Notes: generated from the sequence alone by a model not told the origin. DNA of 47,591 bases from a virus (IMGVR_UViG_3300045988_142058), one strand, 5' to 3'. Positions 21,252 to 44,811 are shown, numbered from the stretch's first letter. A program made the numbers and translations.

Positions 21252-22631
21252 CTACTTAATCAACGGCCGGAAAGCCGCCAACACATCATCAGATCGTCCG
21301 ATTGTTGAACCACCAGGCAACGGCAACTCAAACTCAAAACGAACAGCTTTCTCCAGACTCTCCCAGCGAAGAGAATCATCGTTAATAACGTGCAAATACC
21401 AGCTCTTACCGTTAAATACCGACCGCTTTATTCTGAAGCTATGCTCACGGCACAATTGCTTCACTTCCTCATCAGAATGAAACTTCTGATAAAACCAGTG
21501 TCCCTTCCGGTACAAAGCAGAAAAACCGTTATGGTCAATAAAATAAAGCCGGCTTATAGAGCTAGCAGCTTGCGTTCGTTTAAGCACACTCTCCAGCTCT
21601 CCACGACTACGGCCAGAAAAGAATATTGACCCACCAGCTTTACACAGGCCTTTCAGAACCGTCAGAACGGACCATTCAGCCTCGACACTATCGACCGAGT
21701 TCAAAACGCTATCGCAAATCACGTAGTCGTAACGCCCTCGCGTTTTTAAGTCGTCCACCAGCGTATCAATCATTCGGTTTGTTGCAGCCCTATCCAGAGT
21801 GTTTCCAGCGCCCTTACGGCGGAAAAGCTCGAGATCATGCAGGTTATATCCCTTTGCCCTGAGCATTCGCGCGTAGTCTCCCTGCCCCGAACCAAAATCA
21901 ATTCCTCTTGGCGTCTTGGCAATGATCGGGAGGATCAACGACTCATACAGGTTTGATTTCAGGCTGCCACCATTACGCAACCGCATAAGCTGCGCATACG
22001 TCTGGATGTATGTTGTTTTCTCCAGATGAGAATACTCAAATACACCATAAGTTTTATTCAGATAACTTTGGTATTTTTCCTTCTCAACATCAGGGATCAC
22101 AAACACCGTTAGCGGTGTGCGCGTCATCTTCGCTGCTAATGCATACTGAGCACAGTGAATAACCTCACCAGACTGAGTAGCAACACAACCACCCCACGGA
22201 CCATACTTGATAACCAGTTCCGCTATGTTCTTTCGAACATATGCCATTTTCGCGCGCATATTGCCTGAGATCTGGCTTGCCGATACCTGAACAAAACCAT
22301 GCTTATCTTCCAGACCGGACACCCTGCAACGCTCATCTCCGCTATCAAAATCCGTTCCGTTATGCAGTTGGTTAAACCGTACTTCGTCGTATACCGTCGT
22401 TTCACAGGGCAACACATACACCGCAGCACGCGTTATTCCCAACTTACGTAGCGCCTTCGTCCTTTGGTGTCCCGCCACCAGCAAATCGCCGCGCACTATC
22501 AATGGCTTCACAAGCCCCAGCTCCCTGACGCTTTCCGCCAGCCTCGCAAGATCATCCTCACCGATAAAACGCGGGTTATATTCCGCGCCGCGTAGGTGCG
22601 TTATGTCGTAATTCAGGTGAAGCATCAGCAC
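21252..22631 (-). CDS. ParB-domain / SAM-dependent DNA methyltransferase fusion
   Basis: 459 aa; N-terminal ParB-like (LVAGHQRTKA), C-terminal motif I-like IDFGSGQGDYA. Confidence 0.65.
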   Translation of the reverse strand: MLMLHLNYDITHLRGAEYNPRFIGEDDLARLAESVRELGLVKPLIVRGDLLVAGHQRTKALRKLGITRAAVYVLPCETTVYDEVRFNQLHNGTDFDSGDERCRVSGLEDKHGFVQVSASQISGNMRAKMAYVRKNIAELVIKYGPWGGCVATQSGEVIHCAQYALAAKMTRTPLTVFVIPDVEKEKYQSYLNKTYGVFEYSHLEKTTYIQTYAQLMRLRNGGSLKSNLYESLILPIIAKTPRGIDFGSGQGDYARMLRAKGYNLHDLELFRRKGAGNTLDRAATNRMIDTLVDDLKTRGRYDYVICDSVLNSVDSVEAEWSVLTVLKGLCKAGGSIFFSGRSRGELESVLKRTQAASSISRLYFIDHNGFSALYRKGHWFYQKFHSDEEVKQLCREHSFRIKRSVFNGKSWYLHVINDDSLRWESLEKAVRFEFELPLPGGSTIGRSDDVLAAFRPLIK

Positions 22632-23248
22632 ACCTCCCCAGCCAGCAATGCGGATACAAATCCGATATAGCTGCCATTATCATCAACATAACGAGACACC
22701 GCGCAGTCAAAACGATCCGCTTCCTCATCCGTTGCCGGGATTTTATGACCTCCAAATGACAGGTACTGAACTTTTACGCCTGATTTGGCCTCATCCTTCT
22801 CAAATGGGATATCCATACCCTCTGTGTCATCGTAGACCGCCGCACTCAATAAGTTATCCAGTTCGCGCTGAGTAAAACCAATTGAGTCCAGAGCAAAATC
22901 ATCGGCCGCAAGATCTGCAAGCTCCGCGCTTAACAACTCTTCATCCCAACCAGCATTCAGCGGAATACGGTTGTCGGCCAGACGATATGCCTTCTTCTGA
23001 TTCTCCGTTAGCCCAGCCAGAACAATGCAGGGAACATCATCCATCCCCAACTGAGTGGCCGCAGCAATTCGACCATGACCAGCAATTACAACGTTGTTCT
23101 CGTCTATCAGGATCGGATTAGTCCATCCGTACTCCTGTATGCTGGCAACAATCTGATCTACCTGCTCCACGGAGTGTGTGCGAGCGTTCTTTTCATAACC
23201 AATCAACACAGAAAGTGGTAAAGAAACCACATTAAGATGTTTTGTCAT
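22625..23248 (-). CDS. ParB-like nuclease domain protein
   Basis: 207 aa; same motif set as 19368..19958 (NPILIDENNVVIAGHGR, QKKAYRLADN). Confidence 0.75.
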   Translation of the reverse strand: MTKHLNVVSLPLSVLIGYEKNARTHSVEQVDQIVASIQEYGWTNPILIDENNVVIAGHGRIAAATQLGMDDVPCIVLAGLTENQKKAYRLADNRIPLNAGWDEELLSAELADLAADDFALDSIGFTQRELDNLLSAAVYDDTEGMDIPFEKDEAKSGVKVQYLSFGGHKIPATDEEADRFDCAVSRYVDDNGSYIGFVSALLAGEVC

Positions 23249-24603: not shown

Positions 24604-24631
24604 GTAAAAAAGCCCCGGCAATTGCCGAGGC
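24604..24631 (-). terminator. Intrinsic terminator inside cassette-1 operon
   Basis: 10-bp stem (with G.U only in minus-strand RNA) followed by UUUUUUAC; in 74-nt gap after second gene. Confidence 0.55.
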
Positions 24632-24654
24632 TCGTTGTTCGTTATCGTTACGGT

Positions 24655-24855: not shown

Positions 24856-25121
24856 TCATCATCTCCTGCCGCACATACAACCTCACAAAAAACATCAGCG
24901 GAATGTTTCTCCTTGAACGAATGACGCTCAAAACCGCACTCAATATCAGGCGCAAAAACATCCACCACATACGGTCTTTCAGAATGTTTGTTTTCCCAAC
25001 GATAAACCGTAGTGACGTTGAAATGTTTTAACGCTTCACGGAACTCAACGCTGCCCGTCAGGTTTTTTGAGGTCAGGTATTGCAGGAGGTTTTTTACTAC
25101 TTCACGGTCTTGTACTTTCAT
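24852..25121 (-). CDS. Hypothetical protein, first gene behind cassette copy 1
   Basis: 89 aa; ATG at 25121 preceded by cassette GGAG RBS. Confidence 0.45.
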   Translation of the reverse strand: MKVQDREVVKNLLQYLTSKNLTGSVEFREALKHFNVTTVYRWENKHSERPYVVDVFAPDIECGFERHSFKEKHSADVFCEVVCAAGDDE

Positions 25122-25230
25122 CGGGTTATCTCCGGTTTAACCAGGGCGGGTATCGCTCGGTTTCGGGTATAACCATAGGAAATTTTTTCCCACCTGTAAA
25201 GCACTTTTTATATAAATCTATAATTATATA
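25122..25230 (-). promoter_or_regulatory. Promoter-leader cassette copy 1
   Basis: ~109 bp near-identical to copies at 32043..32150 and 40979..41087; putative -35 TTTACA (25195..25200), -10 TATGGT (25172..25177), leader with GGAG RBS. Confidence 0.6.
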
Positions 25231-25233
25231 ATT

Positions 25234-25821
25234 CTATGACACTTGCCAGAGAGCATCATGCAACTGGATACCTCCATTGCACTGGTTGCCCCAGCCATGC
25301 CAGCCATCAGGTAAATCACCGCGAGCAAACAGCTCAATACGAGGAACATCGCCTAACAGCTTTACCAGCTTGTCACGGACCACATCAGGCTTCCGAGAAT
25401 GCTCCAGACGAGGCGATGTAAACGACTGAATGATTCCCGCATCAAGACGTGTCGGTAGTTTGCCTTTCACTGCAAACAAGCAATCTTCACTGTTTGCACG
25501 AGTCATATGCCCCATCCCCATCACCAGCTTATCTGGTTGTCGGCTACCACATTTGTTCCATGTGAAGCCCTTCATGGTCATCAGCCTGAATCCCCATGCT
25601 TTCACCACCAGCAACGCTTCTTCTGGCTGAGTCGGAACCCACCACATGGCCAACAAACACGATTCAGGATTAGCAAGCTGCCAGACAGGAATACGAGCAA
25701 TATCCTCAGCTTTCATCGTTGGATACTTAAAACCAGCGCCACGATTCCCATCCTTACACTTGTCTTTGTATTCCCAGGGGGGATCTGCATAAATCAGATT
25801 AAACAATGCAATTGCCTCCAT
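25234..25821 (-). CDS. MT-A70 family N6-adenine DNA methyltransferase
   Basis: 195 aa; DPPW motif (LIYADPPWEY). Confidence 0.8.
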   Translation of the reverse strand: MEAIALFNLIYADPPWEYKDKCKDGNRGAGFKYPTMKAEDIARIPVWQLANPESCLLAMWWVPTQPEEALLVVKAWGFRLMTMKGFTWNKCGSRQPDKLVMGMGHMTRANSEDCLFAVKGKLPTRLDAGIIQSFTSPRLEHSRKPDVVRDKLVKLLGDVPRIELFARGDLPDGWHGWGNQCNGGIQLHDALWQVS

Positions 25822-26129: not shown

Positions 26130-26205
26130 TGGTGGCCCCTACCGGATTTGAACCGATGACCGTGCGATTATGAGTCGCCTGCTCTAACCACTGAGCTAAG
26201 GGGCC
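26130..26205 (-). tRNA. tRNA with CAU anticodon, tRNA-Ile2 (lysidine)-like, CCA encoded
   Basis: 76 nt cloverleaf GGCCCCUUAGCUCAGUGGUUAGAGCAGGCGACUCAUAAUCGC...GGUUCAAAUCCGGUAGGGGCCACCA; 7-bp acceptor stem; resembles E. coli ileX from memory; elongator Met not excluded. Confidence 0.8.
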
Positions 26206-26374
26206 ATATTTGATCTGTTTGTCTGGTGTGGCGCCGCGCACGAAAATCCCAGCCAATAAATTCAGGATTTTTGGGCGCGGCGGCATATCAGACAAACATG
26301 GTTGATGCGTGCGCTAATGAGAAAAGCGCATAGAATGTTGTAACTATATATTTATATAATTATAGAAATATATA

Positions 26375-26584
26375 TTACTTTGGACAGTTGATTTCCCATG
26401 CCCTGTTATGAGCCAGAATATCTTTCTTTGTCTGGCGGTCCATAACATCGATATCGTGATCAGTCAGGTAGATGGGCTTTACCCAATCACAGGCGGTATC
26501 AACCACCACCGGGACGCTTCCACGACTCCCGCAGCTCGCGATCAACATCGTCATCAGCCATATGGTTAACACTCTGCTGTACAT
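26375..26584 (-). CDS. Outer-membrane spanin Rz1-like lipoprotein
   Basis: 69 aa; lipobox-like LIASC; overlaps 3' end of Rz-like gene in another frame. Confidence 0.55.
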   Translation of the reverse strand: MYSRVLTIWLMTMLIASCGSRGSVPVVVDTACDWVKPIYLTDHDIDVMDRQTKKDILAHNRAWEINCPK

Positions 26585-26777
26585 TGCCCACCTCTTTTGT
26601 CACTTCTATACGCCGCTCCGCAGTGGCTTTTACGGCGGCTGCATTCTCATTAATGCGCTGCTTTTCAGCTTCATCTTCGGCCTTTTCTCGCCCCTTCATA
26701 CGACCAAAACCAAACGCGCCGAATGCAACCAATATAATTGTGCCAATAAATGACAAAACGGCCTTCAAACCAGTCAT
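26499..26777 (-). CDS. Inner-membrane spanin Rz-like
   Basis: 92 aa; N-terminal TM, charged coiled-coil; follows endolysin. Confidence 0.6.
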   Translation of the reverse strand: MTGLKAVLSFIGTIILVAFGAFGFGRMKGREKAEDEAEKQRINENAAAVKATAERRIEVTKEVGNVQQSVNHMADDDVDRELRESWKRPGGG

Positions 26778-27316
26778 ACCACCACTCGCTCTTTCATCCA
26801 GCCGTAGACAAACGACTCATTCGCCTCGCGCTTCTCCGCCAACTCCAGATAGCGTTCGCCCTGCGTACAGTTCAGCGACGTCAGCATCACCCGTTCGCCG
26901 TCTTTTCCCCGATTCCCAAGATAAGCACGCAGCGCATTAATGGTACGTGGACCGATTCGTCCGTCTGCATCCAAATCGGGATACAGCTTCCCGCGCAGGT
27001 TGAACACATTCAGCCAGCGTTGAAGCATTTTTGACGCCACTGTTGGCCCCATGTTCACCCCCGTGTCACACAGCTCTGCAGCAATATCAGAGGATAATGC
27101 GGCCACCTGATCAAAGCGTGGTCCGTACCAGTAATCAGCCTCAAGGATTTCCAGTGCCTGTTCGCGAGTTAAATCGCGCATATCGCCACGGTATCCATGA
27201 GCACGGGCAGTGTTCTGAGTAATGCCCCACTTTGTTGGGCCTCCCTTGTCGTCAGGGTGATCAACATAACCGCCCTCTTTCCCAAGAATGCTGTTAAAAA
27301 TCTCATCTTTGGTCAT
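26774..27316 (-). CDS. Endolysin, GH108-like with peptidoglycan-binding domain
   Basis: 180 aa; ILGKEGGYVDHPDDKGGPTKWGIT motif; C-terminal DGRIGPRTINAL. Confidence 0.8.
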   Translation of the reverse strand: MTKDEIFNSILGKEGGYVDHPDDKGGPTKWGITQNTARAHGYRGDMRDLTREQALEILEADYWYGPRFDQVAALSSDIAAELCDTGVNMGPTVASKMLQRWLNVFNLRGKLYPDLDADGRIGPRTINALRAYLGNRGKDGERVMLTSLNCTQGERYLELAEKREANESFVYGWMKERVVV

Positions 27317-27635
27317 GATTAAACCCTAATGCGTCAACTATCCGCGCCAGATTGCCCCTGAAATACAGAACAACGATGCAGATAATCAGATTTCCAATAA
27401 CCACCAGCCAGTGGGATTCTTGATAAAGACCGAACACATAACGGAAGGGAACATTGGCGTATACAATGACGTAGATATAAGCCAGAAAGGAAACAAATGG
27501 ACGATGCCTGGAGTCTTTCCGTCGATAAAGCATCAGCGCCATTACTATTACTGTGCAAAGCACCGCATTAATCAGTGCTGACGGGTCACTGCTTACCATT
27601 TGAACCCCCTCCACGTAAGCGGGAAAGCATTCCAA
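27303..27635 (-). CDS. Membrane protein, holin/antiholin-like
   Basis: 110 aa, multiple hydrophobic segments; start uncertain. Confidence 0.4.
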   Translation of the reverse strand: MECFPAYVEGVQMVSSDPSALINAVLCTVIVMALMLYRRKDSRHRPFVSFLAYIYVIVYANVPFRYVFGLYQESHWLVVIGNLIICIVVLYFRGNLARIVDALGFNHDQR

Positions 27636-27981
27636 AGATGCTACCGAGATCCTGGCTGTTTACGAACGTGAGGATTTTAATGGTCAATGCAGCCACAATA
27701 ACCGCACCAAGCGCATCCAGAGGACGATCGTTGTAGCTGGTCCATTTGGCAAGAAATGAGCCAACTAACGGCGCTCCAATCACTCCAACAATGAACGATG
27801 TAAAGAAATAGCCAATCAGCTTGAGACGGCTAATATTCACCGCTGTAGCAACATAGAAAACAGCGCCAGCAAATGCCCCGAATACAACGCCGTAATCAAT
27901 ACCAGTTGCAATACCAAAAACGCTGGCACCCATCAGGCCACCAGCAGCAACGGCCGTACCGGAAATTGGTTCTGCTGACAT
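27586..27981 (-). CDS. Putative holin
   Basis: 131 aa, 3-4 predicted TM segments, upstream of endolysin. Confidence 0.55.
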   Translation of the reverse strand: MSAEPISGTAVAAGGLMGASVFGIATGIDYGVVFGAFAGAVFYVATAVNISRLKLIGYFFTSFIVGVIGAPLVGSFLAKWTSYNDRPLDALGAVIVAALTIKILTFVNSQDLGSIFGMLSRLRGGGSNGKQ

Positions 27982-28171
27982 TGAAATCCTCGTTAAAAAA
28001 AAAGCCCCGCCGAAAAAGGCAGGGCTTCATAAAGCAACAAATTACGCGGTAATCGCTTAACGCAGTTTTACTACGTTAAATGAAACACTACACCCAGTTA
28101 CCACCTAAAACAAGGTTTCCCCATAAAAAAACCTTCATATCGTGGTTAATCGATCAATAAAAAAGCAATGT

Positions 28172-28363
28172 TCAACTTTTTACCAACTGAACATCCCGAC
28201 CAGGACTTCCATAATATTCGCCGATATTCCACTGCTTAAGTTGAGTAATCTTCTCCAACTTAACTCCCACAGAATCCAATTTCTGCCATGTTTTCGGTTG
28301 TATGTGCCTCATTACCCGCTCTGAATATCTAAATACTGCTCGTAGCCTCGCTAAATTGCTCAC
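28172..28363 (-). CDS. Hypothetical small protein
   Basis: 63 aa ORF. Confidence 0.3.
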   Translation of the reverse strand: MSNLARLRAVFRYSERVMRHIQPKTWQKLDSVGVKLEKITQLKQWNIGEYYGSPGRDVQLVKS

Positions 28364-29064
28364 TTGTCGCCTCCTTTACGAATCTGTTCCGCCCACTCCT
28401 CAAGAGATTTCTCCGCATATTCACCGGACAGGCCATCAATCGGGTGCGGTTCATTAGCCAACTCTTCTTTCGCTGACAAAATCATGCGTGTAACGTCGAA
28501 AACTTCACGCAAAGACTTATTGATAAATCCGTGATTGAACGCAGCAGCAAGACGGCTTGCGGTGTAGTTAATCCCCTCGTTGCGTGCCTCCGCACGTATT
28601 TCAGCCAGGAAAGCGTCGGTGGCTGACATATTTCCTGTTGCCTTCATGGCCTTCAAAATAACCAGAACGCCATCTCGCCCAACCAACTCGGAGATAATCT
28701 CAGTGTTGTCGCCAACAACATCACAGAATGCCTGAACAGCTTTACGAGCAAGTGCATTCTCCGCCGCCAGCGCCGCACGACAGGCCTCCAGTTCAGCAAT
28801 ACGCTTGTTTTGGGCTTCCCGCTCATCCAGTAGTGCCTGTACTACTTCAGGGTTGAAAGCTGCGATATAACGAGCGTTGTTCTCTGCGTTTTCCTGTCCA
28901 TCAAAGCCGGTCCATTTGATAACGTCTTCACATCGTTTATCACCGGGTGTATGCACCGCATATGTACCAGTACCCGACGAAATAAATGCGACCCATTCGC
29001 CTTGTGTTGCCTGTTTTGCTATCTCACGCAGCGCCTGATAATTAATTGCTGTGCTGTTAGTCAT
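28360..29064 (-). CDS. Hypothetical protein
   Basis: Start moved to ATG 29064 (MTNSTAINYQ...), 8-nt overlap with upstream gene; 234 aa. Confidence 0.4.
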   Translation of the reverse strand: MTNSTAINYQALREIAKQATQGEWVAFISSGTGTYAVHTPGDKRCEDVIKWTGFDGQENAENNARYIAAFNPEVVQALLDEREAQNKRIAELEACRAALAAENALARKAVQAFCDVVGDNTEIISELVGRDGVLVILKAMKATGNMSATDAFLAEIRAEARNEGINYTASRLAAAFNHGFINKSLREVFDVTRMILSAKEELANEPHPIDGLSGEYAEKSLEEWAEQIRKGGDK

Positions 29065-29398
29065 TCCAAGACTCCAGCTCTGTTTCAATTTCTTTATCGA
29101 TCTCATCGTTTGTGGCTTCTTCATCCAGATGGTCACGAGCCTCTTTACGATACTTTTCTCTATGCGCTTCATACCAGTTAGAAAACTCCGGCGACCAGCC
29201 TGTGTCCTTGCCGTCGTAGTCAAACTTGGCATTTTTCTCAGCCATGCTTTCAACCATGTTTTCAGCCGTAATAAGCCCCAATTCACGCATCCCACGCAAA
29301 AAACTCTTACGCATGTGAGGACTAACTTTCGAATCACAAATAGGCTTAAATTTGACTTCCCAACGGCGAATACAACGTGCATTAAGTGATTTGTTCAT
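29057..29398 (-). CDS. Hypothetical protein
   Basis: 113 aa ORF. Confidence 0.4.
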   Translation of the reverse strand: MNKSLNARCIRRWEVKFKPICDSKVSPHMRKSFLRGMRELGLITAENMVESMAEKNAKFDYDGKDTGWSPEFSNWYEAHREKYRKEARDHLDEEATNDEIDKEIETELESWND

Positions 29399-29400
29399 AG

Positions 29401-29997
29401 TTATGCTTCCTGAATACGCTTAAACTCAATTACCCATACCCACGGGTTAGATAGCCAGTTCTCTTGCCCGTAAATACCGCGCCAGATATCACCAAAGCCA
29501 ACGCGATAAACCGCTTCCGGCGGTGTAATCTTGTACGTCGCCGGAGATGCACCTTCCGCTTTAGCATCTGCCTCGCTCATGTCATGTAGCCGTTCCACAC
29601 GCACATCGGTTATTTCCAACAGAATACGGCTGGCCCAACGTGGCATGTGAATTGATGGGGTCCAACCCTCAGCTGGCTTGCTACTATCTGAGTAATCAGC
29701 CTTGTAATCACACAGTTCAGAAGCCAGAGAGACACCATCTTTGATTTCCTGAATGACATCGTTATCCAGCCAAAAAGCGTTGAATGTTTCACGTACCCAT
29801 ATGCGATCACCAACGTTACCGAACGGACATAAACCATGTTTCGGTGCATCCATAACATGGGTACAGACACCATTGCGTTTCTTTGTCGGTTTACTGATAA
29901 CCAGGCAGTTATCCGCCCCGACATTTTTTACAGGTCGGCGAGTCTGCGTTTTCCTTCCTTCGAGGATGGCCCGGACCATCTCATCGTTAAAAATCAT
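29401..29997 (-). CDS. ASCH-domain-like protein
   Basis: Start at MIFNDEMVRAILEGRKTQTRR; motif resembles ASCH fold. Confidence 0.4.
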   Translation of the reverse strand: MIFNDEMVRAILEGRKTQTRRPVKNVGADNCLVISKPTKKRNGVCTHVMDAPKHGLCPFGNVGDRIWVRETFNAFWLDNDVIQEIKDGVSLASELCDYKADYSDSSKPAEGWTPSIHMPRWASRILLEITDVRVERLHDMSEADAKAEGASPATYKITPPEAVYRVGFGDIWRGIYGQENWLSNPWVWVIEFKRIQEA

Positions 29998-30008
29998 GCC
30001 GCGCTCTT

Positions 30009-30257
30009 TCACTCTCCCTCCCACGTTTTCAGACTTTCACCACAAAACGGGCAAAATGAGACTCGAATAGGTGATTTAGAAAACTCACCGGAACGCAACA
30101 TCACCAAATCAGGTCCACGGGTTAAACTCTCATTCCAGATTTTGTATAGCAGTAAGCCTTTTCTTACTGAGCATTCAGCATCGTGCTCAAGAGACTTTGC
30201 CAATGCAGCACACGGCTCTATTCGATTGCCATTAATTCGACAATTTGATCCACTCAC
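30009..30257 (-). CDS. Small Cys-rich (zinc-ribbon-like) protein
   Basis: GTG start overlapping upstream stop (GTGA) with GGAGG RBS; Cys pairs NCRINGNRIEPC and CPFCG. Confidence 0.4.
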   Translation of the reverse strand: MSGSNCRINGNRIEPCAALAKSLEHDAECSVRKGLLLYKIWNESLTRGPDLVMLRSGEFSKSPIRVSFCPFCGESLKTWEGE

Positions 30258-30619
30258 TTCAACTCCTCCCGACGACGTTCCTGAAGCTCTAGCATTGCGG
30301 CTCGGAAATCCTGCCACCATTCCTCATCTGCAACGGGGGTGTTTCGCTCCAGCACCTTGTCCGCATCAGCGATCAGGTTTGCCAGACTCTTGTCTGAAAT
30401 CTTCGTTACCAAAGTCGTTGGTTGCTCAACCTGCCCGATAGGTTTTATCGTGCTCAAAAGGAGGCGACGGCGGGAAAGTGGTGCGCCACAACGACGGCCA
30501 TCTTCCTTGCGATATGTTTCTTTCGGACCAACACACCAGGTTGTCGGCGTTTCGCGTAACTTCACTTTTTTCTCACCATCAATGGTGATGATTATTCCGG
30601 TATGGGTTTTGATGCTCAT
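30254..30619 (-). CDS. Hypothetical protein
   Basis: 121 aa ORF. Confidence 0.4.
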   Translation of the reverse strand: MSIKTHTGIIITIDGEKKVKLRETPTTWCVGPKETYRKEDGRRCGAPLSRRRLLLSTIKPIGQVEQPTTLVTKISDKSLANLIADADKVLERNTPVADEEWWQDFRAAMLELQERRREELK

Positions 30620-30897
30620 GCCACAGCCCCTCTCAACGGCTTAACTTTGGCTAATAAGGTGTTAAACAACATGGAGTTAGGATTCATGCCAAATGGCAAT
30701 TCCGGTTTAGCGGAGTAGTACAGGCAACCATTTATTTTCCTGGTTGTTATCTGTCCTTCGGCAACCATGCTTCTCAGTCTGCAACGCATAGAGTTCTGCG
30801 ACACACCAATGTGCTCCGCGATTACGTCCACTTTTGAACATGGGTGATCGGTCAGGAAATTAATCACATCTTGGGGGTTAATAATTTTGCGTTTCAT
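30616..30897 (-). CDS. Putative winged-helix DNA-binding protein
   Basis: Second ATG (MKRKIINPQ) has AAGGA RBS; HTH-like VDVIAEHIGVSQNSMRCRLRSMVAEGQI. Confidence 0.4.
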   Translation of the reverse strand: MKRKIINPQDVINFLTDHPCSKVDVIAEHIGVSQNSMRCRLRSMVAEGQITTRKINGCLYYSAKPELPFGMNPNSMLFNTLLAKVKPLRGAVA

Positions 30898-30943
30898 TGT
30901 CGAGGCGTCCTTATACATTTATATAAATATATAATTCTATATA

Positions 30944-30963
30944 CGGCGGGAGACATCCCGCCG
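30944..30963 (-). terminator. Terminator-like hairpin after first gene of cassette-2 operon
   Basis: 8-bp stem CGGCGGGA/TCCCGCCG 12 nt after stop at 30975, followed by AU-rich tract. Confidence 0.4.
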
Positions 30964-30974
30964 TAGGCTTACTG

Positions 30975-32042
30975 TCAGGCTTTCAATAGCGATTCTTTCA
31001 GATATCGGGCATCAGCCAGGGCATTTGGAGTAATCTTGCGAACCCATGCATTACGGGTTGGACTCCACTTAAAGGCGCGTGATTTAAGCAGCGAACGAAT
31101 GTTTGCCTCTGGTTTGCCAGGGAAATAAAACAGGATGCGGTTATCCTCTGGATCTATCTCCATAGAAAAGTCGTCGTATTCTTCGCGCTGTGCTCCTGTT
31201 ACAGACTTGACCGATTCAAGCTCCTTAATACGGCTCTGTAGTCGTTTGATCTCGGCGTTATTGTTGCTCAGTGCGTATGAAGGGAATCCGATGCGCCCAC
31301 AGAAATCTCCGGCCAGTAACTCTTTGGCTTCGCTTTCTGTAAACCTGAGATCGATTAATGCAGAAAGCTGCTGTAATTGGTCTTTTTTGTATTTGCGAAT
31401 GGCCTTATTTGCGGCCTTCATTTTGACGTGTGACTTCATGCAGCCTTGCAGCTTACGAAGCAACTTAAATAGCGCATCAGGATCATCAGACGAAATTCCA
31501 TTACGACCAACACCTGCGGCTTTGCTCTCGTAGTGTGATGCTTTACTTTCGCATTCAACAAACGCTTTTCTGAATAACGCATCAGCTTTAGACAAACGGC
31601 GGCGATGGCCTTTCGCGCTATAATGGTCAACTAAAATCGGCTGGCCTAACGGGATCACATCCAACAGGTCATGCGCTCGCTTATGCGCTACCGCACCTTC
31701 TTTTCTGGCTTTTTCTGCACGAGCAATATATCGGGCAAGACGCGCGTTCTGGCGTTCCTGATAGGTGTTTACGTAATCATCTCCGCGCTGCTGCTGTTCA
31801 AGCCATGCTTTACGCAGATCTTCTGTTACGTCCACCAGCTCCGCAGGGATACAACCAGTTTGGGCTTCATAAGAGTAACCATCCTCATAGATACGCCCAT
31901 CGTCTTCAACAAAGAAAAAGGTTTCGTGCTCATCGCTTTTGACCATACGACCATTAACATGGCGTAATAGGTAGCCAGTATCAGTGCTTAACAGGCTGTT
32001 AGGGTTGTTGATCCAGTCAGAAATAATTACTTGTTTATTCAT
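30975..32042 (-). CDS. DUF3560-like protein, first gene behind cassette copy 2
   Basis: 355 aa; start at cassette RBS; family call from memory only. Confidence 0.4.
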   Translation of the reverse strand: MNKQVIISDWINNPNSLLSTDTGYLLRHVNGRMVKSDEHETFFFVEDDGRIYEDGYSYEAQTGCIPAELVDVTEDLRKAWLEQQQRGDDYVNTYQERQNARLARYIARAEKARKEGAVAHKRAHDLLDVIPLGQPILVDHYSAKGHRRRLSKADALFRKAFVECESKASHYESKAAGVGRNGISSDDPDALFKLLRKLQGCMKSHVKMKAANKAIRKYKKDQLQQLSALIDLRFTESEAKELLAGDFCGRIGFPSYALSNNNAEIKRLQSRIKELESVKSVTGAQREEYDDFSMEIDPEDNRILFYFPGKPEANIRSLLKSRAFKWSPTRNAWVRKITPNALADARYLKESLLKA

Positions 32043-32150
32043 CAGATTTCTCCGGTTTAACCAGGGCGGGTATCGCTCGGTTTCGGGTATAACCTTAGGA
32101 AATTTTTTCCCACCTGTAAAGCACTTTTTATATAAATCTATAATTATATA
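32043..32150 (-). promoter_or_regulatory. Promoter-leader cassette copy 2
   Basis: Differs from copy 1 at -10 (TAAGGT) and in ~8 nt next to ATG; lies between Q-like gene and lysis-containing operon. Confidence 0.6.
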
Positions 32151-32211
32151 TTTATAGATTTTCGATGTTCCCGATGTCTACACACCATCAAAACAGCTCA
32201 AAATGACACTT

Positions 32212-32589
32212 TCACTCTCTTCGCTTTTTCAAATAGTCGACAACATACGCCCTGGCTTTTGCCAGCTTCCGGCGATACTGTCTGAGACTAAGAGAAAGGG
32301 CGTGGGCTTTATCAATATGCGGTGCATTTATGTCGAGGCCCCGAATCTCCCACGCCCCGTATTCAATTCGGACAACCAGCGCCGCAGTCTCATCAACTAC
32401 CGTGAGGGCCGTCACCGCTCCCTCGATACTGGTTTCCAGTGAGTCATTTGGTGCGCCGCCCCCTCCGGTAAACTGGCAACGCGTAACCATCATCATTTCT
32501 AACATCGACGCGAAACCGCTACGGGCGTTGCAGCCATTGCGCACCCACAGCGCCCATAGCTCAAACAAGCTATCCAGATCGCGTCTCAC
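32212..32589 (-). CDS. Putative late-gene antiterminator Q-like protein
   Basis: 125 aa; last gene of Cro-side operon, immediately upstream of cassette 2 and lysis operon; N-terminal LFELWALWVRNG resembles small Q family. Confidence 0.4.
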   Translation of the reverse strand: MRRDLDSLFELWALWVRNGCNARSGFASMLEMMMVTRCQFTGGGGAPNDSLETSIEGAVTALTVVDETAALVVRIEYGAWEIRGLDINAPHIDKAHALSLSLRQYRRKLAKARAYVVDYLKKRRE

Positions 32590-34562: not shown

Positions 34563-34581
34563 TTAACGAACTCCAGTTAAA

Positions 34582-34596
34582 ACCACGATATGTGGT
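34582..34596. promoter_or_regulatory. Operator ACCAC-gatat-GTGGT in cI/cro intergenic region
   Basis: Perfect inverted half-sites, 5-bp spacer. Confidence 0.6.
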
Positions 34597-34602
34597 ATTA
34601 AA

Positions 34603-34617
34603 ACCACATATCGTGAG
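34603..34617. promoter_or_regulatory. Degenerate operator ACCAC-atatc-GTGAG
   Basis: Adjacent to first operator; right half imperfect. Confidence 0.4.
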
Positions 34618-34684
34618 TTTTTCAATGGGCGAAACAAAAAATAACCTTCTATTTGTGGTCCACCTCTCGTCTTACCATGTGAAA

Positions 34685-34699
34685 ACCACTAAATGTGGT
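34685..34699. promoter_or_regulatory. Operator ACCAC-taaat-GTGGT near cI start
   Basis: Perfect half-sites, 38 bp upstream of cI ATG. Confidence 0.6.
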
Positions 34700-34736
34700 A
34701 ATGTATAAATAACCCACCATTCACGATTGATGAGAC

Positions 34737-35393: not shown

Positions 35394-35435
35394 TACACAG
35401 CACGGCGAAAGCCGTGCATTTCTACGCTCAAAAAA

Positions 35436-35450
35436 ACCACATTTTGTGGT
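35436..35450. promoter_or_regulatory. Operator-like ACCAC-atttt-GTGGT downstream of cI
   Basis: Perfect half-sites; after hairpin 35401..35416; could also act as weak terminator. Confidence 0.45.
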
Positions 35451-35485
35451 TTTGACAACATGTGAAAGTATAAAAGAGGCTACGC

Positions 35486-35864: not shown

Positions 35865-35884
35865 AAGCGGGCTAACGCCCGCTT
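35865..35884 (+). terminator. Hairpin terminator after gene 35486..35860
   Basis: 8-bp stem AAGCGGGC/GCCCGCTT, loop TAAC, then AU-rich sequence. Confidence 0.4.
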
Positions 35885-36010
35885 ATATGATTATAGTTTT
35901 ATATAATTATATAAAACGCTTTTCATCCGCCAAAAAGTTGGTTATGCTTACCTCGTTCTATAAATATAGATTTATAGAATTATATAACCAAACACATGGA
36001 GTCTCGACAA

Positions 36011-36664: not shown

Positions 36665-36707
36665 TATATAATTATAGTTTTATAGATTTATATAAGAGGG
36701 TATACAC

Positions 36708-36956
36708 ATGGCCGCACCATCAAAACCACCAAAGAAGAACAGCAAAGGCGTACCGCCATCGATCGAACAACCGCAGGTTTTCGACCCGACTGAAACGCCA
36801 ACCAGAACCAAATCAGGTGGGGCACAAATGGCGTTTAACGTCGACCCTGAATTTAAACGTGAGTACAAAACATTCGCCAGCTCAATGGATATGTCATTGA
36901 AAGAAGTGCTGACAAAATCTTTTGAGTTACTCAAGGCTCAATACAACCAGAAGTAA
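36708..36956 (+). CDS. ParG/ParB-like small partition DNA-binding protein
   Basis: 82 aa after parA; basic N-tail, RHH-like C-terminus. Confidence 0.5.
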   Translation: MAAPSKPPKKNSKGVPPSIEQPQVFDPTETPTRTKSGGAQMAFNVDPEFKREYKTFASSMDMSLKEVLTKSFELLKAQYNQK

Positions 36957-37178: not shown

Positions 37179-37200
37179 AAAAAAGGCCCCCGAAGGGGCC
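37179..37200 (-). terminator. Intrinsic terminator for small-peptide transcript
   Basis: GGCCCC-cgaa-GGGGCC followed on minus RNA by UUUUUU; 7 nt after peptide stop. Confidence 0.6.
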
Positions 37201-37206
37201 TAATCG

Positions 37207-37329
37207 CTACTTGCTGCTAATGTTTATCGTCACATTCAGAGCGTTATCAGTAATCTTCCAACCCTCCCCATGTGGCGTAAACAAAGCTCCAGTAACAACG
37301 ATAAAAATACACATACAGTATTTTTTCAT
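37207..37329 (-). CDS. Small hydrophobic peptide (40 aa), candidate type I toxin
   Basis: MKKYCMCIFIVVTGALFTPHGEGW...; AAGGG RBS; intrinsic terminator immediately after stop; upstream leader carries 15-nt antisense target. Confidence 0.4.
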   Translation of the reverse strand: MKKYCMCIFIVVTGALFTPHGEGWKITDNALNVTINISSK

Positions 37330-37622
37330 TGTATGGCCCTTACAGGCCGTTTCACGGCATCCCCACCGACGAAAACAACGCGAGAGCAAGCACGGCTGCT
37401 TGTGCTTGCATGTACGGCAACAGGAAATCCTCCCCTAAAGTCGGTGCCCGGGTGCGAATCGGCGGGAAGGTCCACAGGTATTTTACGATTATTTTAAGAT
37501 TAGTAATAGGAAAGAAATTAAACGAAAAAAACAGTTTATTTTCACAAAATCAGTAACCTACCCACAATCTGTGAGTTTGCTGACACAACAAGAACCACAA
37601 TTTTTTGATGTATAATAGTGGA

Positions 37623-37753: not shown

Positions 37754-37772
37754 GTTTCTGCCTACCAATAAA

Positions 37773-37787
37773 CCCACGCTATGTGGT
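37773..37787. promoter_or_regulatory. Near-operator CCCAC-gctat-GTGGT in antirepressor leader
   Basis: One mismatch to consensus; between sRNA terminator and ant operon. Confidence 0.3.
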
Positions 37788-37900
37788 TGTCTCTGTTAAA
37801 ATCCCGCCGTATTGACATGAATGCGCCATTGGTGGACACTTTCCGAGCCGTAGCAAAATCTACGGTCGGGATTAGCCTCCTGAATAACACGATGGCGCAT

Positions 37901-37921
37901 ACCGCGTTAGCGGTTTTTTTA
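37901..37921 (+). terminator. Second intrinsic terminator in antirepressor leader
   Basis: ACCGC-gtta-GCGGT followed by TTTTTTT. Confidence 0.45.
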
Positions 37922-38082
37922 TGCGTAGAGCACTGTTACGCCCAAATTATGGTGGGTCGTACAGGGGCGGAGAAATCCGCGCCGGTTCGTCATTGTGTCC
38001 GGTAAGGCTAACCCTGTACGGCTCACCACCATTTGATTAGCCTCGAATGGCGGTGATAGTTCCATATACTGGAGATATCACA

Positions 38083-38274
38083 ATGACAAACCTACCCCAT
38101 GACTATTACGTCAACCTCGTAAAGATCCTTCTCAAGAAAGCCTCATACGCCGATAAATTCCGCCTGGCTGAAATCATCGAGCGCGAAGCTATGCGCATCG
38201 CCAGCAACGATAACGCTGTTTCTGACGCAAAAATCTCCCTCGTAACCAAAGTAGTTATGGGAGGTGCAAAATGA
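38083..38274 (+). CDS. Hypothetical small protein upstream of antirepressor
   Basis: 63 aa, GGAGA RBS, stop overlaps antirepressor ATG. Confidence 0.4.
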   Translation: MTNLPHDYYVNLVKILLKKASYADKFRLAEIIEREAMRIASNDNAVSDAKISLVTKVVMGGAK

Positions 38275-39452
38275 AAACGCTTCCGACCGTTAACACCCTA
38301 CAGCCTATCCTGCATAACCAGCTCCCCGTTATCACTACTGAACTACTGGCGCAATTGTATGGAACCGAGCGCCAACGTCTGACAAACAATTTCAATAGAA
38401 ACAAGGAACGTTTTATAGAAGGTAAACACTTTTTTAGGATAGAAGGTAAAGAGTTACGAGAGTTGAAGAACAAAAACTCTTTAAGAGTTCCTGTGAGAGT
38501 AGTTAACGAACCATCTTTAAGAGGGTTACAAATTCCCCCGAAAGTTCGCTCCCTCATCCTCTGGACAGAACGCGGGGCTGCACGTCACGCCAAAATGCTT
38601 GAAACTAACCAAGCGTGGGATGTGTTCGAACGGCTGGAAGACTGCTATTTCAACCAGAACGCACAAACGGCCGCGACCGTTACCGTCTCGCCAAGCAATG
38701 CTCGTGAGGTTGTCGATACGCTCAACGCCAAACCGATGTTTTACATTAAGGTGTGCAATAACGAGCCACTCACAACCTCAGCCGATGTTGCCCAGGCATT
38801 CAGCACCACAAACAATTCCATCGTTATGGCCATCGATGCGTTACGCATTCCTCGCACAGCTGCGGCGCGTCATTTCTTTAAAGAGCAACGACCGTTGGAA
38901 GGAAGCGACCGCGAAATAACAATCTATCGCATGACAAAAGACGGATTTACCTTGCTCATGGAGAGCATCGACGGTCCAAGCGTGAAAGATATCAAGCTGG
39001 CCTACATTGAAGCCTTTAACGCTATCAGCAGCGTGTTAAAAACACAGTACGAGCGTGATCTGGCTAAACGACTGTACCAAGAAAAAACGATTATCCGCGC
39101 GGCAACAGAGCATAATCGGCTATTAACGGAACCGAACTACAGGAAGGAACTAATCAAGGAGTTTGACAAGGCAACAGGGAAAACCAAAGCGGCGCTAAAT
39201 CTGCCAGCAATGACTCAGGAAAATGTGATATCAGCCTTACTTCTTGATCTGCTCAGAAACGCCAGAGCACTTATCAGCTTTGACGAAAACCTGAATCCTC
39301 AGCTCAAGCTACTACCACCGACAGGCAAAGTAGTCGACCAAGCTGATCACAACAGCATACTCAGCGTACTGGATGCAAACCTGCCAGCCAAGACACTACA
39401 GGATCTGATAAAAACATGTGCTGATAAGCTGGCACAGAAAAGCAGACCATAA
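38271..39452 (+). CDS. Antirepressor (ORF6N/ANT N-terminus, Rha-like C-terminus)
   Basis: 393 aa; N-terminal LPVITTELLAQLYGTERQRLTNNFNRNKERF; terminator after stop. Confidence 0.75.
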   Translation: MKTLPTVNTLQPILHNQLPVITTELLAQLYGTERQRLTNNFNRNKERFIEGKHFFRIEGKELRELKNKNSLRVPVRVVNEPSLRGLQIPPKVRSLILWTERGAARHAKMLETNQAWDVFERLEDCYFNQNAQTAATVTVSPSNAREVVDTLNAKPMFYIKVCNNEPLTTSADVAQAFSTTNNSIVMAIDALRIPRTAAARHFFKEQRPLEGSDREITIYRMTKDGFTLLMESIDGPSVKDIKLAYIEAFNAISSVLKTQYERDLAKRLYQEKTIIRAATEHNRLLTEPNYRKELIKEFDKATGKTKAALNLPAMTQENVISALLLDLLRNARALISFDENLNPQLKLLPPTGKVVDQADHNSILSVLDANLPAKTLQDLIKTCADKLAQKSRP

Positions 39453-39651: not shown

Positions 39652-40187
39652 AATTCCACCATAACTGATAACCACCCTTCAGACACAACCCCCCCTCCCC
39701 CCATACAGGGTGCCCTTTACCGGAGTTCCGGCCCCTTCTCAAAAGCATCAAAAAAAGCTCGAGATCGAGTACCGGAACTCATGCCACCAGATAGCTCCAC
39801 ATCGTTTCCAATGCTTCGCCGCCGTGTGCGCCCTGTGGCCCACAATCATGCCATTGGTCGTCTGATATACCTTCTTCTGCTCATAGAGCACAGGCGAGTT
39901 GTCGCACTCCTGCCTTTCTCAGACTCGACTTAGTTTAGATCGCTGTTCCTGGCTTGCGTCAGCACACTTTCCCCTTGTACGCATACCCGCGCGCCACTTC
40001 GCCCAAAAACACCGAACCCAACGAAGTGGCAAAGACAACGACGCGAGCGTGAGTCTGAAATGGGCACCAGTAAAAAAGGGGTTGCAGGCGCAAAAAGATT
40101 TGATTATCTTTAGACGCAAGAAAGCCGCCCCAATCAAGAGGTGTCTTTTTAAATCCAGCCTACCAAGCAAGATTTAAATTTCAGACT

Positions 40188-40220
40188 GAAAACCGCCCGG
40201 CAAGGCGGTTTTTGTCTTTC
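40188..40220. terminator. Bidirectional terminator downstream of HTH gene
   Basis: AAAACCGCC-cggcaa-GGCGGTTTTT with A-run before and T-run after. Confidence 0.55.
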
Positions 40221-40597: not shown

Positions 40598-40978
40598 TTA
40601 CTTAACGAGGAATAAAAATGGTTTATTGTTCGGCGGTGTAATCGGGGCTGGCTCGCTTTTGCTCATGCGATCAGTGTACCAAGCCAACTCCTTGTCAAAG
40701 TAAGCCTGATTAAAATAGGCCATGAATGTAGTTTCAAATCCATAACGACCGCTAATACGCAGCATCTGATTGCCGTTCTCTGTTTCCAGATATACCTGGG
40801 CACGTTCCTGATTCTCCTTCAGCCAGGTTAAAGCCTCATCGCATGAGGACACACGATACTCATCATCGTAGCCGTCATCGATGCGGCTTGAGGAAGAACG
40901 GCAAATCACGCCAACAGAACCAGCCAGGATAGTTTGAATTTTAAGGAAAGCGTTTTTGCGGATTTTAATCATGCTCAT
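40598..40978 (-). CDS. Hypothetical protein, first gene behind cassette copy 3
   Basis: 126 aa; ATG at 40978 preceded by cassette RBS. Confidence 0.45.
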   Translation of the reverse strand: MSMIKIRKNAFLKIQTILAGSVGVICRSSSSRIDDGYDDEYRVSSCDEALTWLKENQERAQVYLETENGNQMLRISGRYGFETTFMAYFNQAYFDKELAWYTDRMSKSEPAPITPPNNKPFLFLVK

Positions 40979-41087
40979 CGGGTTATCTCCGGTTTAACCA
41001 GGGCGGGTATCGCTCGGTTTCGGGTATAACCTTAGGAAATTTTTTCCCACCTGTAAAGCACTTTTTATATAAATCTATAATTATATA
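40979..41087 (-). promoter_or_regulatory. Promoter-leader cassette copy 3
   Basis: One substitution relative to copy 1; heads operon 40598..40978 plus HTH gene. Confidence 0.6.
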
Positions 41088-41245
41088 AATAATAGTAACT
41101 GGTGTTTTTTTAGGCGAAGCATTAAACATTTTTGTTTAGCTTATTGGCAAGGTCTTGAAAAAGACATTTCAGCAATGCTATACCATTGAACATGGTATCG
41201 GCTGAATTTTGTAATTAACACATTTTAAACAATTTGAGGTGCCAA

Positions 41246-44650: not shown

Positions 44651-44690
44651 CCATATCTGGTCGTTTTCCAACCAGACACCCACAATCGTA

Positions 44691-44705
44691 ACCACGTTAC
44701 GTGGT
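44691..44705. promoter_or_regulatory. Operator-type ACCAC-gttac-GTGGT in repA leader
   Basis: Same half-sites and spacing as immunity operators; ~100 nt downstream of putative repA promoter. Confidence 0.5.
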
Positions 44706-44811
44706 TTTAAGAGAACTCTACCACAACACTTTCGGTCATGCACGAAGTCTCTCGCTAATCGAACGATAATCCACCAGTAAAAGGATCTAAATCGGATCTC
44801 GTGTTGCGAGC

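Follow-up and report, generated by a model that had tools for sequence, protein, structure and literature searches.

A probable accessory-gene bay upstream of the lysis genes in a ~47.5-kb phage-plasmid of Escherichia coli

Gene content and boundaries of the block

We analyzed a block of eight genes in the viral sequence IMGVR_UViG_3300045988_142058 (47,591 nucleotides, hereafter the window; all positions are counted from its first letter). The block occupies positions 28172–32042 and lies directly upstream of the lysis genes of what turned out to be a phage-plasmid. It consists of eight open reading frames (ORFs), all on the minus strand, and its two ends match, to the nucleotide, the stop codon of its final gene and the start codon of its first. 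Each ORF has a PHROG match with an E-value of about 1e-32 or lower. The block opens with a DUF3560 (YdbA-like) gene (30975–32042, 355 aa), followed by genes for a winged helix-turn-helix (wHTH) protein (30616–30897, 93 aa; phrog_1687, ‘MarR family’, E = 5e-32), p121 (30254–30619, 121 aa; phrog_7520), the Cys4 (zinc-ribbon-like) protein Cys82 (30009–30257, 82 aa, GTG start; phrog_4030, 8.5e-37), an ASCH-like protein (29401–30012, 203 aa; phrog_874, 6e-85), p113 (29057–29398, 113 aa; phrog_6675) and an Ead/Ea22-like protein (28360–29064, 234 aa). The gene for p63 (28172–28363, 63 aa; phrog_9594) closes the block. From the wHTH gene onward, neighboring genes either overlap by 1–8 nt, in several cases as ATGA or GTGA, or sit 2 nt apart. 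Such tight packing of stops and starts is far beyond chance expectation.

Two of the proteins pass Pfam gathering scores by a wide margin: DUF3560 (PF12083, E = 3.7e-31; 108.2 bits versus 27.2, residues 94–216) and Ead/Ea22 (PF13935, E = 4.6e-27; 95.7 bits versus a cutoff of 27). For the wHTH protein, the Pfam matches (FaeA, HTH_24 and TrmB) are all below cutoff; its start at 30897 is preceded by an AAGGA ribosome-binding site (RBS) and agrees with the GenBank/RefSeq calls. The p121 protein is made of two modules, residues 3–61 (N-terminal, phrog_1226) and 72–121 (C-terminal, phrog_14672), and its two halves are found apart in other viral contigs. In Cys82, the C-X9-C and C-X2-C motifs are kept in a homolog of only 47% identity.

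A preliminary description of the window had proposed genes at 28172–32042, and all eight ORFs as well as the gene boundaries at both ends are confirmed. Its list of genes was right as far as it went, but omitted p121 between the wHTH and Cys proteins, and one of the ‘four unknowns’ at its end is the Ead/Ea22-like protein just described. The ASCH-like assignment agrees with RefSeq, where homologs are named ‘ASCH domain-containing’; the Pfam ASCH domain (PF04266), however, stays below the cutoff in three alleles (17.0–17.5 bits versus 21.2) and covers a short stretch only. The description also correctly had the block lead to holin and endolysin, but missed a conserved 190-nt non-coding stretch with a terminator that parts the block from the holin gene.

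Conservation and turnover among relatives

The first and last 62 bases of the window are identical, and the window therefore represents a circularly permuted genome of ~47.5 kb. It encodes a cI/LexA-like repressor, a ParA ATPase, an anti-repressor, P2-type tail genes and lambda-like head genes. Its nearest complete relatives are 47–49-kb circular E. coli plasmids, mostly non-mobilizable (60 of the 63 relatives in PLSDB are typed so). The plasmid of strain ATCC 25922, a close relative, has genes for RepA, ParA, a RelE/ParE toxin-antitoxin pair, an invertase and a P2-type tail; no relaxase or type IV secretion genes were found in this complete relative. The Yersinia pestis myophages vB_YpM_39, 41 and 44 are 94–97% identical to the window across the block. 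Because there are both plasmid relatives with RepA and ParA and myophage relatives, the element is a phage-plasmid, one of the RepA/ParA kind with a P2-type tail, and not a lambdoid phage. The lambdoid framing of the preliminary description is at odds with RepA, ParA, the toxin-antitoxin pair, the invertase, the P2-type baseplate and tail, and the C4/isrK immunity RNAs. The family of ~47–49-kb phage-plasmids of E. coli and its relatives is widespread but unstudied, even though it includes the plasmid of a reference strain, ATCC 25922, and three Y. pestis phages. Membership in the pSLy3 phage-plasmid group had been guessed at and was wrong, as pSLy3 belongs to the ~100-kb SSU5 supergroup.

Three Rfam hits above threshold accompany the immunity functions of the element: ryfA (37179–37475, minus strand), isrK (37847–37920, plus strand) and C4 antisense RNA (37945–38033, plus strand). 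They lie upstream of the ORF6N/Rha anti-repressor gene (38271–39452), an arrangement that corresponds to the P1/P7-type immI module.

To see how the block varies, it was compared gene by gene in 19 IMG/VR loci collected via p125, the gene product encoded just upstream of the block, and 23 collected via p121. The early module upstream is syntenic in all of these loci. Within the E. coli lineage, DUF3560, wHTH and p121 are 98–100% identical. At the other end, wherever the locus of a relative reaches the lysis genes, the final gene ahead of the holin leader is p63 (90–97% identity in the E. coli lineage). Between p121 and p63, gene content differs in almost every locus, with ~10 cargo layouts in 11 independent loci. 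Cys82 varies by relative and is missing from the Yersinia phages vB_YpM_39/41 and several IMG/VR relatives. ASCH-like alleles are 58–100% identical or are replaced altogether, as in ATCC 25922, which has an unrelated 214-aa protein, and p113 is found in only some relatives. Ead alleles are 63–83% identical, or their place is taken by DUF7446 and other genes. Among ten cargo proteins from relatives, Pfam recognized DUF7446 only. Plasmid records give the same picture. Coverage of the proximal segment (cassette plus DUF3560, wHTH and p121) reaches at least 80% in 56 PLSDB plasmids; of the 63 records that match, 62 do so at 95% identity or more. For the distal segment, such coverage is seen in just 9 plasmids, and 445 records contain pieces of it, among them plasmids of ~90–100 kb.

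In two sister lineages (L012 and L013), DUF3560, wHTH, the N-terminal module of p121 and p63 are retained at 51–81% identity (p63, 53–57%) together with other cargo. In more distant relatives the whole block is absent; they keep the early module from p164 to p125 and homologs of the two holins, holin8 and holin3 (26–39%), and have 5.5–7.8 kb of unrelated small ORFs at the block position. One 68.5-kb IMG/VR contig (L018/L034), which may be hybrid or rearranged, has different genes after the block, among them two Ead-like genes, DUF7446 and a 491-aa ORF, and no holin was found there within 9 kb.

Since the middle genes differ between relatives, and since the block is not a conserved, syntenic unit with clear core functions in all of them, the locus is considered a recombination hot spot. 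We think it probable that the block is an accessory-gene bay of a middle transcription unit, with a fixed head (DUF3560, wHTH and p121), a fixed tail (p63) and a swappable middle. The genes in the middle are exchanged by recombination with other phage-plasmids, Mu-like prophages and lambdoid/P22-like phages. The preliminary description had likewise proposed the block as a candidate accessory island, naming universal conservation with clear core functions as the observation that would contradict it. This stands for the distal five-gene part, which is swapped in most close relatives, but not without reservation for the first three genes, given their near-identity throughout the E. coli lineage.

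That near-identity, together with the retention of the trio in L012/L013 (p121 as its N-terminal module), is the starting point for an alternative in which DUF3560, wHTH and p121 form a core lytic-cycle module, for example for DNA replication or processing or for regulation of the promoter cassettes, with cargo status limited to the distal genes. In DUF3560, the C-terminal half matches phrog_19458, labeled ‘primase’ (3e-36), and no obvious lytic replication genes were recognized in the early operon. In addition, a conserved hairpin and a cassette-type iteron precede the wHTH gene, as would be expected of an autoregulated regulator. However, the trio is absent from L015–L022, which share the early operon and the holin homologs, and DUF3560 elsewhere belongs to non-essential leading regions of plasmids. 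We consider a core module of this kind quite unlikely.

Transcription signals around the block

The block is headed by one of three copies of a 114-nt repeat (25118–25231, 32038–32151 and 40975–41088, minus strand; 91–100% identity). Cassette 2 (32038–32160, minus strand) consists of a TATA-rich iteron/palindrome, a sigma70-like promoter and a ~45-nt leader that ends at the ATG of DUF3560. The promoter is predicted from TTTACA (32115–32120) and TAAGGT (32092–32097), separated by 17 nt. Each copy precedes a different first gene (p89, DUF3560 or p126), and the leaders show no difference as far as the RBS/ATG. Copy 2 would drive DUF3560. The preliminary description had placed the block between a late cassette and the lysis genes, and the repeated promoter/leader cassette at its head bears this out. 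Three copies are present in all E. coli-lineage relatives and in L012/L013, one of them always directly before DUF3560. The distant relatives L015, L016 and L022 have cassette versions of their own, 3–4 copies spaced 0.65–1 kb apart, at other places in the genome; L021 has two copies ~5.9 kb apart, the leader of which has the ACCGAGC motif in common with that of the window.

TATA-rich palindromic or iterated repeats occur at 25208–25237, 26336–26381, 30911–30940, 32128–32157, 35883–35985, 36665–36706 and 41065–41094. They flank parA on both sides, mark the three cassette promoters and follow the DUF3560 and spanin genes. A gene for a small ParG-like protein (36708–36956), which has no Pfam match, follows parA. 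This distribution hints at a single protein, binding to centromeres or operators, that could link partition of the plasmid with control of the lytic units, as omega and KorB do in plasmids.

The cI-type operator is distributed differently. Its consensus, AACCAC-N5-GTGGTT, has eight close matches in the window versus 1.6 expected by chance. Six of them (34581–34700, 35435–35451, 37772–37788 and 44690–44706) fall in the region of the divergent cI and early promoters, after cI, and ahead of both the isrK/C4/ant locus and repA. No cI-type operator was found at the three cassettes. Such dispersed control by a single repressor recalls that of P1 C1.

The cI-controlled early operon (p164, p171, p77, Ref nuclease, DUF1064 and p125) ends 50 nt before cassette 2, and a terminator scan predicted none between the two. 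Its last gene encodes p125 (32212–32589, minus strand, 125 aa), the predicted model of which resembles sigma region 4 and the Q21 antiterminator. This protein is a candidate Q-type antiterminator or cassette regulator. At the sequence level, p125 has no Pfam match at E ≤ 0.01 and so is not a member of PF06323 (Q21-type), and a profile search against PDB did not recover Q21 at E ≤ 10. The identification of p125 as a Q82/QuuD-type protein by sequence was rejected, as the hhalign comparison was not significant. The protein weakly matches the NCBIfam family PA0613_fam. PA0613 itself is a gene of the P. aeruginosa pyocin cluster located upstream of the holin gene there.

Strong terminators at 24610–24633 and 28001–28028 and a hairpin at 40187–40214 follow the first genes of the cassette units. 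A layout of regulator, promoter and terminator would fit antitermination control of both lysis and structural genes. Within the block, the hairpin ACGGCGGGATGTCTCCCGCCGT (30943–30964, minus strand) belongs to a conserved element (30909–30964), where the TATA-rich iteron (in its fourth copy) and then the RBS of the wHTH gene come after it. The stem is kept in L012/L013, where the DUF3560 protein is 68% identical, and the loop varies. The terminator-like hairpin of the preliminary description is thus real and conserved in its stem; its terminator character is weak, however, as no U-tract follows it. It is a weak terminator at best, and could alternatively be a processing or binding site.

The non-coding stretch between p63 and the holin gene harbors a structured element of ~160 nt (27990–28171, minus strand) that ends in the strong intrinsic terminator at 28001–28028, directly before the holin RBS. 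Its fold has a z-score of -4.6. A core of ~110 nt is nearly invariant in L012/L013, although the flanking proteins are only 53–57% identical, and both strands of the terminator stem carry substitutions in these lineages, at least one of which is compensatory (G-C to A-U). Conservation of a terminator at this position extends to the wider family, as one also immediately precedes the holin gene in L015, L016 and L020, which are distant relatives. The element contains the 12-mer AACCACGATATG, identical to the cI-type operator half at 34581, and a GTGGTAA half 40 nt downstream of it. The region 27996–28153 was considered as a GcvB RNA (Rfam RF00022) and rejected: it scores 34.3 bits (E = 5e-5) against a gathering score of 42, and, the terminator and one hairpin apart, it aligns only weakly with E. 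coli gcvB. The element could be a small RNA, a late leader or both. It probably gates the lysis genes and insulates the block from them.

The lysis cassette that follows (26375–27981, minus strand) encodes Phage_holin_8, Phage_holin_3_7, a GH108 endolysin with a peptidoglycan-binding domain, and candidate i- and o-spanins. The holins and the endolysin were assigned by Pfam, the spanins by position, transmembrane segment and lipobox. Between the lysis genes and an MT-A70 methyltransferase gene there is a tRNA gene with a CAT anticodon (26130–26205, minus strand), annotated as tRNA-Met by ARAGORN and in the Yersinia phage records; the ATCC 25922 copy is tRNA-Ile in RefSeq.

Taken together, these signals would allow early expression of the block, given the possible read-through, the sigma70-like cassette promoter and the terminator downstream. 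In the mechanism we propose, transcription would start at the cassette promoter and would also read through into the block from the cI-controlled early operon. In the absence of antitermination it would end either at the hairpin that follows DUF3560 or at the pre-holin terminator, and the block would thus be expressed earlier than, and independently of, the lysis genes. With antitermination, presumably by p125, the polymerase would continue into the lysis genes.

In a bolder version, the phage-plasmid has put DUF3560/YdbA, an establishment gene of plasmid leading regions, together with exchangeable early-type accessory genes of phages, between the promoter and the terminator of a Q-like late control module. 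The block would then be a dedicated, constitutively expressed compartment for counter-defense and establishment. If so, its genes would be made without the antiterminator, both at entry and in the plasmid state, and a GcvB-like structured RNA and terminator would gate lysis, a logic common to plasmids and phages. We regard this version as very unlikely.

Some observations weigh against an accessory bay within a middle transcription unit. In the distant relatives, only iterons flank the block region. Because the full cassette sits elsewhere there, its role may be that of a general promoter under iteron control and not of a late one. Promoter, read-through and antitermination are all predictions from the nucleotide sequence. 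Finally, the strict conservation of DUF3560, wHTH and p121 could reflect a core role in the E. coli lineage.

Origins, putative functions and comparison with known loci

The head and the middle of the block have relatives in different kinds of mobile elements. DUF3560 has 726 detectable homologs. Both standalone (~265 aa) and full-length (~355 aa) forms sit in gene arrays of conjugative plasmids and integrative and conjugative elements, next to genes for SSB, an orphan C5 methyltransferase, a SprT-like protein, ArdB/KlcA, LPD29, ParA/KorB/KorA, relaxase and coupling protein. Some members are fused to ArdC-N, the N-terminal domain of the anti-restriction factor ArdC, or to the polyvalent-protein domains LPD29/LPD30. 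On pO157, the DUF3560 gene is found among leading-region genes, and in the leading-region family table of Samuel et al. 2024 (PMC11541004) DUF3560/YdbA is family number 28, with 1913 members, and uncharacterized. The AlphaFold2 model of DUF3560 (mean pLDDT 90.9) predicts an N-terminal beta domain, a long helical bundle and a C-terminal alpha/beta domain; searches of PDB and BFVD with this model returned no informative fold or functional neighbor. Literature searches yielded no functional study of DUF3560/PF12083, PA0613, the Yersinia phages or the RefSeq proteins. This common leading-region family now gains a tractable phage context.

The distal genes point to phages. A group of viral contigs (L042–L050) carries further copies of Cys82, of the p121 C-terminal module and of several alternative cargo genes, located there 2–3 kb upstream of a related lysis cassette (GH108 85–88%, holins 39–52%). 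One contig of this group, L043, was read by its ORFs and is a Mu-like prophage with the cargo genes between MuB and GemA/Mor. Cys82 copies are 93–95% identical in two contigs of the L043 group, that of L043 itself being the 47%-identical one. The p121 C-terminal module is 92–94% identical in the same group, in which p121-C-like genes precede the cargo. Ead DNA is 90–98% identical in Stx, P22-like and Mu-like phages. These similarities suggest that modules are exchanged between Mu-like phages and this phage-plasmid family.

As to function, the block most likely supplies non-essential establishment or host-takeover functions. The putative products include a small DNA-binding wHTH protein, a PUA/ASCH-like nucleic-acid-binding protein, the coiled-coil Ead protein and the leading-region protein DUF3560. 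Anti-defense activity of some members is plausible. The preliminary description had proposed the block as a candidate anti-defense island. Taken strictly, this would mean that several of the block products act as direct inhibitors of host restriction, CRISPR, abortive infection or the like. A fixed locus with high gene turnover between close relatives, as seen in the PLSDB counts (56 versus 9) and in the cargo layouts, fits such an island, as do the small same-strand ORFs. So does the enrichment of DUF3560 in plasmid leading regions, which are rich in anti-defense genes (PMC11541004), its fusion to the single-stranded DNA-binding N-terminal domain of ArdC and to polyvalent-protein domains, and its ArdB/KlcA neighbors. 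Moreover, homologs of the distal genes occur in early non-essential regions of Mu-like, lambdoid and P22-like phages. It is in such regions that known anti-restriction and anti-RecBCD genes reside.

However, none of the eight proteins matches a characterized anti-defense protein in Pfam, PHROGs or NCBIfam, and PDB sequence searches with DUF3560, the ASCH-like protein, p121, p113 and Ead gave nothing usable. Apart from the names of domains, no function could be assigned to any of the eight by comparison with Pfam, PHROGs, NCBIfam and PADLOC. The block thus holds no demonstrated or homology-supported anti-defense gene; its one link to anti-defense is indirect, the DUF3560–ArdC-N fusion found elsewhere, which is guilt by association. 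The remote-homology check suggested in the preliminary description, run as PDB searches and with the DUF3560 model, gave no informative functional match either. More conventional anti-restriction candidates are located outside the block: an orphan MT-A70 methyltransferase (25234–25821, minus strand; PADLOC MTase_II, 8e-69) and two ParB/Srx-domain proteins, one of them fused to a methyltransferase domain (21252–23248, minus strand). A strict anti-defense island is therefore unlikely.

The opposite role has also been considered, namely that the genes are lysogenic-conversion or defense morons with which the plasmid-prophage protects its host from other phages or plasmids. Hypervariable loci in temperate phages often harbor defense genes, and the location between a plausible constitutive sigma70 promoter and a terminator would permit expression without a late regulator. 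Yet the eight proteins have no match among 5027 PADLOC defense models, the enzymatic effector domains typical of defense systems were not found with Pfam or NCBIfam, and the Mu-like and lambdoid homologs sit in lytic early operons. Such a role is highly improbable. All three alternatives, the core trio, the strict anti-defense island and the defense morons, are less well supported than the accessory bay. For screens of host-takeover or counter-defense functions, the hot spot between p121 and p63 offers a short list of candidates; in other respects the block is an ordinary accessory region.

The arrangement can be compared with four known types of loci. The first is the morons between Q and S of lambdoid phages, such as nmpC in DLP12 and stx in Stx phages, which likewise place relative-specific cargo before holin and endolysin. 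In DLP12 the order is quuD, nmpC, essD, so that the premise of the preliminary description, that lambdoid lysis genes come straight after the late promoter, is not general. As in the lambdoid loci, a putative regulator, p125 with its Q21-like predicted model, is directly upstream of the cassette. A self-contained moron has its own promoter and terminator. In contrast, the block is an eight-gene coupled array, its promoter/leader exists in three copies, and it lies in a RepA/ParA phage-plasmid upstream of the gating terminator, not downstream of tR'.

The second type includes the semi-essential early region of Mu-like phages and the ea/nin regions of lambdoid/P22-like phages. These, too, are arrays of small, non-essential, rapidly exchanged genes, and they have actual homologs in common with the block (Cys82, the p121 C-terminal module, Ead/Ea22 and c55–c58). 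The Mu-like region is also 2–3 kb upstream of a related lysis cassette. However, genes of these regions are under a repressor-controlled early promoter, whereas the block has a separate, repeated cassette downstream of the early operon and is headed by a plasmid-type DUF3560 gene.

Leading-region islands of conjugative plasmids, in which DUF3560/YdbA is among the commonest families (PMC11541004), are the third type. Full-length DUF3560 homologs there head arrays of small same-strand ORFs close to SSB, methyltransferases, ArdB/KlcA and LPD29. Unlike the plasmids that carry such islands, the present element is typed as non-mobilizable and has no relaxase, oriT or type IV secretion genes. It enters as double-stranded phage DNA, to which the logic of single-strand promoters and the T-strand does not apply, and the other seven block genes were not found in the plasmid arrays examined.

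The fourth type is the PR'-qut-6S RNA-tR' module of lambda, which similarly combines an upstream regulator gene, a plausible constitutive promoter and a strong terminator before the holin gene. In lambda the leader is ~200 nt, whereas here 3.9 kb of coding sequence separates promoter and terminator. No Q-binding element or pause site was identified, and antitermination in the present element is proposed from the layout. The arrangement resembles the first three of these types, but differs from each of them in host element, terminator position or the absence of conjugation genes.

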